A stretch of DNA of 7,952 nucleotides from IMG/VR virus record IMGVR_UViG_2609459852_000002. One strand, given 5' to 3'. Below the pieces are notes generated by a model. The model ran no database searches and was not told the origin of the DNA. It was given only the letters and a program-made list of their open reading frames with translations. This DNA is from a virus. Lineage: Monodnaviria > Loebvirae > Hofneiviricota > Faserviricetes > Tubulavirales > Inoviridae. Shown here in pieces: positions 1 to 14 of the stretch. The translations under genes were made by a program, and so were the position numbers. The stretch's first letter is position 1. Every line of letters starts with the position of its first letter.

Positions 1-14
1 ACATTATGCGCACT
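1..14 (-). other. dif-like half site (XerC-binding arm plus 3 nt of central region), cut by the window edge
   Basis: Reverse complement of 1-14 is AGTGCGCATAATGT; bases 1-13 match positions 2-14 of E. coli dif (GGTGCGCATAATGTATATTATGTTAAAT, recalled from memory) exactly. The read is confirmed by ORF 6..236 starting ATG CGC ACT. Confidence 0.55.

Follow-up and report, generated by a model that had tools for sequence, protein, structure and literature searches.

A filamentous prophage unit at E. coli dif with a compact attachment module resembling that of CTXphi

Filamentous phages that hijack the host XerCD recombinases at dif are a textbook theme, best studied in the cholera-toxin phage. The stretch of DNA analyzed here, 7952 nucleotides long and referred to throughout as the window, begins with part of a dif site, raising the questions of whether it is such an element, where the element ends, and by which route it enters the chromosome. 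Window positions 1-14 read ACATTATGCGCACT (reverse complement AGTGCGCATAATGT). On the minus strand, positions 1-13 (GTGCGCATAATGT) are an exact match to E. coli dif positions 2-14, spanning 10 of the 11 XerC-arm bases and the first three bases of the central region; the identity to the XerC arm and central region on which the original prediction was built is thus exact. The dif sequence used for that prediction was also correct: E. coli dif is GGTGCGCATAATGTATATTATGTTAAAT, both as printed for strain K12 in a survey of dif sites (PMC2731167) and at the hipA locus of MG1655, where it is intact (L006 2251-2278). Window base 14 is an A in place of the G at dif position 1. The exact 13-mer is found once in the window, positioned precisely at its edge, and in 0 of 200 dinucleotide-preserving shuffles, with a chance expectation of about 2x7940/4^13 (roughly 2e-4), in agreement with the earlier judgment that a chance match is very unlikely. 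We found no full 28-bp dif with up to three mismatches within the window, because the window contains only a 13-bp core and the remainder of dif is chromosomal. The XerC arm and the adjoining TGT together make up this core:

4-14, minus strand: XerC-binding arm of site 1, AGTGCGCATAA, matching the dif XerC arm at 10/11 positions; the outermost A (position 14) is phage-specific
1-3, minus strand: TGT, central-region bases 1-3, the same as in dif and adjoining the XerC cleavage point

The window comprises a single, complete genome unit from a temperate filamentous phage (inovirus) located at E. coli dif. Full-length matches in E. coli chromosomes are 99.2-99.6% identical to it, and the two chromosomes whose junctions are compared below match at 99.4-99.6%. 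Strain AST240 has a single copy between a LysR-family gene and hipA, and the O166:H15 strain JNE21-003 has two head-to-tail copies with a period of exactly 7952 bp; therefore, the window is precisely one unit. The insertion locus is the dif locus itself, as MG1655 has a plain dif beside hipA and lacks the window. The original prediction had proposed extending the sequence leftward to look for the rest of the site, and this extension completes dif in both chromosomes, XerD arm included. To the left of window base 1, AST240 and JNE21-003 both read ATTTAACATAATAT, giving a left junction of AGTGCGCATAATGTATATTATGTTAAAT, that is AGTGCGCATAA-TGTATA-TTATGTTAAAT, a complete dif identical to the E. coli site at 27 of 28 bases. 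The right (hipA-side) junction reads GGTGCGCATAA followed by TGTGACACGCGTTATGTTGAAAA, a chromosomal XerC arm with the G and then phage sequence. The junction between the tandem copies reads AGTGCGCATAA-TGTGACACGCG-TTATGTTGAAA, an intact phage site that is the same as the window's end joined to its start. The array in JNE21-003 thus has the order dif*-Phi1-attP-Phi2-hybrid-hipA.

Comparing these junctions places the crossover within dif positions 2-14, the 13-bp core, an interval that includes the XerC cleavage point, where the arm meets TGT, and excludes the XerD cleavage point. The A at window position 14 is phage-borne, as had been supposed, because it is present at the Phi1-Phi2 junction and in the hybrid dif, while the hipA-side junction keeps the chromosomal G. 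The placement of the element boundary at the window edge also stands: the window starts at the shared core and stops before the next copy of it. Because the window represents a circular genome opened at the crossover core, the remainder of the attachment site lies at its other end. The original prediction included neither this half nor the second, inverted site and the CTXphi-class architecture described below. In two genomes (H4, NZ_CM135148.1, and H5, NZ_CM135147.1), the IS21-family element ISEc62 interrupts the prophage within or beside the secretin gene.

Within its 7952 bp, the unit encodes an inovirus core set of a rolling-circle Rep, small virion proteins, a pVI-like protein, a Zot/pI ATPase, and a pIV secretin. 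Its annotated and assigned genes are:

274-1533, minus strand: pIV-type secretin, 419 aa (PF00263 and PF03958; phrog_1012, 1.8e-116)
1530-2588, minus strand: Zot/pI-type assembly ATPase, 352 aa (Pfam and PHROG scans)
2600-2887, minus strand: DUF2523 minor virion protein, pVI/Ace-like, 95 aa (Pfam and PHROG scans)
2905-4554, minus strand: 549-aa protein in the position of a pIII-like adsorption protein, its function suggested by position (phrog_7187 and others, of unknown function)
4559-4729, minus strand: putative major coat protein, 56 aa, proposed from size and position only (no Pfam or PHROG family match)
4864-5112, minus strand: small virion structural protein (phrog_2186; annotated CDS)
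5293-5628, minus strand: 111-aa protein downstream of Rep, in the position of an RstB/ssDNA-binding-like protein, which is its putative function (phrog_14411, of unknown function)
5638-6834, minus strand: rolling-circle replication initiator of the Rep_trans family, 33% identical to CTXphi RstA
6834-7031, minus strand: 65-aa protein upstream of the replication gene (phrog_3104)
7169-7381, plus strand: divergent small regulator candidate (phrog_2503), with DNA ~70% identical to rstR of CTXphi, pre-CTX, and VAI phages

No integrase, recombinase, or transposase turned up when 17 window ORFs were scanned against Pfam and PHROG, which makes use of the host XerC and XerD the natural reading. The pIII-like gene differs in length between strains (1650 versus 1632 nt) and contains a stretch with 60% GC (window 3301-3600) that has a 76% match to an unrelated Caudovirales contig; this stretch is probably a glycine-rich linker repeat of the type reported to be variable in UPphi/IKe g3p. 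Downstream of the rstR-like gene, ~340 bp (window 7382-7720) contain no annotated gene, are partly GC-rich, and gave no Rfam match. This segment includes a short G/C hairpin (cccccgtgttacaagacggggg, at about 7469-7490) and, by comparison with intergenic regions in other inoviruses, is a candidate replication origin or packaging region. Beside attP, in the accessory position occupied by ctxAB in CTXphi, a plus-strand ORF (7723-7863) encodes a 46-aa hydrophobic peptide (MHDMILDLLMKYLIAGSLFGMFLFSVITIVLPIVLRAHNKINRSND) that has no Pfam match and is absent from the RefSeq annotation of the loci L001 and L002.

Reading the minus (coding) strand from window position 14 to 1 and on from 7952 to 7934 reconstitutes the site seen between tandem copies. 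We term this site 1; it is followed by a second, inverted site and a GC-rich stem-loop:

7945-7952, minus strand: rest of the site 1 spacer, GACACGCG, without homology to the dif central region
7934-7944, minus strand: XerD-arm-like sequence of site 1, TTATGTTGAAA, matching the dif XerD arm at 9/11 positions
7873-7899, plus strand: site 2, dif-like, attP2-analogous, and inverted relative to site 1, AGTGCGCACAA-TGGCG-TTATGTATAAA, with a 5-nt spacer
7902-7932: GC-rich stem-loop, the attP hairpin tip, with stems at 7902-7911 and 7923-7932 and an 11-nt loop at 7912-7922

The first nine bases of the site 1 XerD-like arm are those of the XerD arm of CTXphi attP1 (TTATGTTGAGG). The spacer TGGCG of site 2 shares only TG with the dif central region TGTATA, and with spacers of 11 and 5 nt, neither site has a normal central region when double-stranded. 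The GC stem (GGCCGCTGCG/CGCAGCGGCC) separates the two sites. As single-stranded DNA, the coding strand is predicted to fold into a forked hairpin of ~100 nt (-43.6 kcal/mol, z -11.65). From base to tip, the predicted structure consists of a 16-bp stem that includes the XerC arm and TG, a 6-nt bulge, a stem that includes the XerD arm, and the GC tip. The one-sided bulge is made up of six spacer bases, TGACAC. As a control, we folded the CTXphi attachment region with the same tool and recovered its known forked hairpin, with a one-sided bulge beside the XerC arm and the same topology as that predicted for the window.

The GC stem-loop is flanked by A and T runs and could act as a bidirectional terminator. 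Termination, or else signaling for packaging or for a minus-strand origin, could even be its main role; as an additional role, any of these is compatible with function as an attachment site. A simple terminator scan did not call the GC hairpin, whose 11-nt loop exceeds the limit of that scan, and an Rfam search of the window returned no family.

We think it probable that the phage is a CTXphi-type Xer-exploiting element, which integrates its folded single-stranded DNA through a single XerC strand exchange and encodes no recombinase of its own. The forked hairpin of CTXphi attP(+), formed by attP1 and attP2, is known from Val et al. 2005 and from Das et al. 2010 (reviewed in PMC4246890). In the model for this class, XerC exchanges strands between the folded (+) strand and dif, guided by pairing beside the XerC arm; replication then resolves the intermediate, the masked prophage site makes integration irreversible, and phage DNA is produced from tandem copies (PMC4246890, PMC3442271). 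Applied to the window, the packaged strand would be the minus strand, as we infer from gene orientation only. In that packaged (+) strand, the inverted sites 1 and 2 would pair into the forked hairpin, presenting one XerC arm, a central region with the six-base bulge, and one XerD arm. XerC would cut the hairpin after AGTGCGCATAA and dif after GGTGCGCATAA and exchange one pair of strands, with the common TGT stabilizing the exchange, and the resulting pseudo-Holliday junction would be converted to prophage by replication. The outcome would be a working dif (27/28) on one side and, on the other, a masked double-stranded site that is non-recombinogenic, so that Xer would not be expected to excise the prophage, and rolling-circle replication from tandem copies would supply new phage DNA. 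Dependence on XerC and XerD, catalysis by XerC with XerD in a structural role, the single-stranded substrate, resolution by replication, irreversibility, and phage production from tandem copies are all attributed to this phage by analogy with CTXphi. The array in JNE21-003 fits the CTXphi prophage layout described in PMC3442271, with a new dif at one end and inverted sites between the copies and at the other end.

We defined the module as the ~92 nt bounded by the outer edges of sites 2 and 1. Of 5426 complete E. coli genomes, 933 carry it, with 81-100% identity, and it is present in most of the IMG/VR contigs retrieved with site 1 or GC-stem patterns. When the module sits in an unrelated phage backbone, the first homologous base is precisely the outermost one of site 2, an edge that would be difficult to account for unless site 2 belongs to the functional unit. 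The bulge and spacer vary more than any other stretch of the module among the 31 variants compared; the bulge is 5 nt in some, and the spacer is 10-11 nt long. In an alignment of 23 E. coli and IMG/VR variants, 95% of cells were paired, versus 28-52% in slid controls. Covariation among the 23 variants was weak: four pairs had double changes, and some shuffles reached the observed scores. True double changes are few because the module is ~90% conserved in sequence, and we do not take these counts as proof of the fold. The XerC-arm stem carries two mismatches in many relatives.

The same count identified 488 places on plasmids that match the module. Many ColV/F-type plasmids carry a ~70-nt relic of attP (GGTTCGCATAATGACGTTATGCTAAAGAGGCCGCTGCG...CGCAGCGGCCTTTTCAA) comprising site 2 and the GC hairpin and lacking site 1, for example p1ColV5155 of E. 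coli APEC strain IMT5155 (L003 3001-3069). The relic adjoins IS fragments and a STM4504/CBY_0614-family gene, and could be the remnant of an old insertion by an integrative mobile element that exploits Xer (IMEX) into a dif-like site on a plasmid.

A scan of contigs with the window Rep identified only two relatives, both from Photorhabdus and with a Rep 46% identical to that of the window, too few for a phylogenetic test of covariation. The better of the two loci was nevertheless more informative than the closer variants. The Photorhabdus site 1 is AGTGCGCCTAA-TGTAACCAACG-TTATGTTAAAA, with an 11-nt spacer as in the window, and its inverted partner is AGTTCGTCTAA-TACACG-TTATGCTAAAG. Both XerC arms follow the dif variant of the host (A8 to C; Photorhabdus dif is AGTGCGCCTAATGTATATTATGTTAAAT), and the GC stem is fully compensated (ATCGCCTGCG/CGCAGGCGAT). 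The Photorhabdus module is predicted to fold with the same topology (z -9.16).

Immediately downstream of the Photorhabdus temperata prophage (L066 18258-18385) lies another attP-like pair, distinct from the first: AGTGCGCCTAA-TTTACTTGCCG-TTATGTTGCAA and its partner in inverted orientation, GGCTCGCATAA-TGCGCG-CTATGTTAAAG. This pair has a different hairpin tip, and its spacer starts with TTT, not TGT, which suggests an array of two distinct IMEXs. The downstream junction in this contig (18250-18380) did not give a complete forked hairpin on folding, as expected for a hybrid of two different elements, and we left it out as evidence.

The main competing explanation is integration as in VGJphi, in which a double-stranded replicative form would recombine through site 1 alone by XerC exchange, with resolution by replication, in a reversible reaction; site 2 and the hairpin would then serve otherwise, as a terminator, packaging signal, or origin. 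The junctions do not separate this route from the single-stranded one. Recombination of a double-stranded site 1 alone would give identical junctions, with a chromosomal XerC arm joined to the phage center and a phage XerC arm joined to the chromosomal center, and the TGT homology on the XerC side fits such an exchange. A GC stem with A and T runs also resembles a terminator. Known sites of this type, however, are single sites of ~29 bp with a short (~7-bp) central region (PMC4246890), while the XerD-like arm here lies 11 nt away; at a spacing of 6 or 7 nt, we counted just 5/11 or 2/11 matches to the XerD arm. The model also leaves unexplained why an inverted site 2 is conserved, with the edge of homology at its outer base in unrelated phages, and why it tracks the host dif variant in Photorhabdus. 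Finally, a spacer that varies in both sequence and length (10-11 nt) suits a bulge better than it suits a fixed double-stranded central region. Taking both sides together, we regard the VGJphi-type route as unlikely, though it deserves to be kept in mind.

Elements of the TLCphi type have a central region that matches dif throughout, a degenerate XerD arm, and an activator, XafT (DUF3653). Integration by this route, shared with the GGI, would begin with a XerD exchange activated by XafT or FtsK and be completed by XerC, and the lack of a good XerD arm at the canonical 6-bp spacing in site 1 is a feature that it would account for. Against it, the central region of site 1 matches dif at only 3 of 6 positions, all on the XerC side (TGT, with GAC versus ATA on the XerD side), the crossover lies within dif positions 2-14 and not at the XerD cleavage point, and no DUF3653/XafT-like protein was found among the 17 window ORFs scanned. 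We consider this route highly improbable. That the match is the chromosome's own dif or a chance 13-mer, unconnected with a mobile element, is next to inconceivable: the bases to the left of the window are indeed chromosomal dif, but the window holds a full inovirus gene set, MG1655 has a plain, empty dif and no window, one genome has a head-to-tail repeat of 7952 bp, and the 13-mer is not expected by chance; the empty site and the tandem array together rule this explanation out.

A DNA search with the replication module found it in only 48 of 5426 E. coli genomes (about 1% of complete genomes), including the ETEC strain E24377A, where it occupies the same locus. In E24377A, the hipA gene beside the related prophage is truncated to a pseudogene in which only the N-terminal domain is left (L069 10757-11017), and the replication block is paired with a different structural block. 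Conversely, other E. coli genomes carry the structural and assembly block of the window (69-5294) at 98-99% identity but lack the replication, regulation, and attP block (H17-H25). The pattern suggests modular recombinants whose blocks meet at sharp breakpoints near 68/69 and 5294/5295.

No INPHARED phage record matched more than 2% of the window at the DNA level, and the attP junction had no match there either, so that collection does not allow the phage to be named. We found no account of it in the literature searched, and the lineage, which combines an RstA/RstR-like module with its own secretin, appears to be undescribed. We tentatively propose, with somewhat less than even confidence, that it represents a third, as yet undescribed lineage of E. 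coli filamentous phages that integrate at dif, found mostly in human diarrheal/ETEC isolates and combining CTXphi-like RstA/RstR with its own secretin. Under this proposal, its minimal ~92-nt forked-hairpin attP(+) would be a portable cassette, swapped between RstA-type and gene II-type inovirus backbones across enterobacterial genera and leaving relics on ColV-type plasmids.

Because the CTXphi class already includes YpfPhi and CUS-1, with their predicted inverted sites, our finding exemplifies a known system; it is the kind of variation to be expected on a well-studied theme and involves no new mechanism. What it adds, for a family of filamentous prophages frequently overlooked by prophage predictors, is a definition of the precise borders and of the logic of integration, and the observation that the CTXphi-style design of two inverted dif-like sites is common to several unrelated enterobacterial inoviruses as a compact cassette. 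Should the E. coli XerCD proteins indeed integrate single-stranded DNA through this compact hairpin, the module would be the smallest natural CTX-type attachment site, and ssDNA integration would gain a convenient model, or tool, in E. coli.

The closest parallel is CTXphi. Its attP1 (GenBank record L068) lies on the coding strand, has a spacer of 12 nt, and reads AGTGCGTATTA-TGTGGCGCGGCA-TTATGTTGAGG, and its attP2 (same record) reads AATGCGTATTA-CTCGCCA-TTATGTTACGG, inverted and with a 7-nt spacer. Both phages thus have a long-spacer site on the coding strand (11 nt in the window, 12 nt in CTXphi) and an inverted short-spacer site (5 versus 7 nt), and in both the spacer starts with TGTG and the XerD arm with TTATGTTGA. 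They also share the location of attP (flanked by the end of the long operon and by an rstR-like gene), an RstA-like Rep, the lack of a recombinase, a new dif on one side, and tandem arrays. They differ in that the hairpin of the window is compact, with ~37 versus ~90 nt between the sites and a module of ~92 versus ~150 nt; its arms match E. coli dif and not dif1; its phage has its own pIV secretin and no recognized ctxAB-like cargo; and its Rep is just 33% identical.

YpfPhi of Yersinia pestis and CUS-1 of E. coli O18:K1:H7, which are 99% identical to each other in nucleotide sequence, belong to the CTXphi class (PMC4246890, Table 2). They have a predicted pair of inverted XerC/XerD sites, tandem arrays, a dif rebuilt at one end, and an rstR homologue (PMC4266046), and their inverted XerC/XerD sites are also described in PMC3442271. 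Like the window, they are enterobacterial filamentous prophages at dif with inverted sites, tandem arrays, and an rstR homologue. YpfPhi may be set apart by its published description, according to which it has replication genes of the gene II/V type, shared with UPphi (PMC7307601), whereas the window has a Rep_trans/RstA-type Rep.

UPphi are IKe/I2-2-like inoviruses of Enterobacterales whose repeats match about the first 15 bases of dif (PMC7307601), and they share with the window the dif/hipA locus and tandem repeats. Two prophages at dif/hipA that we examined (L004 and L005) have a Rep of the gene II/X family and correspond to the UPphi group of that study. Both carry the ~92-nt attP module at 81-86% identity, and the UPphi-type module is predicted to fold alike (z -6.44), but their gene II/X-family Rep and their structural and accessory genes are different from those of the window. 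VGJphi and TLCphi, finally, also use the host XerCD and dif and have a conserved XerC arm; they differ in having single double-stranded sites of 28-29 bp, in place of the 11-nt spacer and conserved inverted partner found here.
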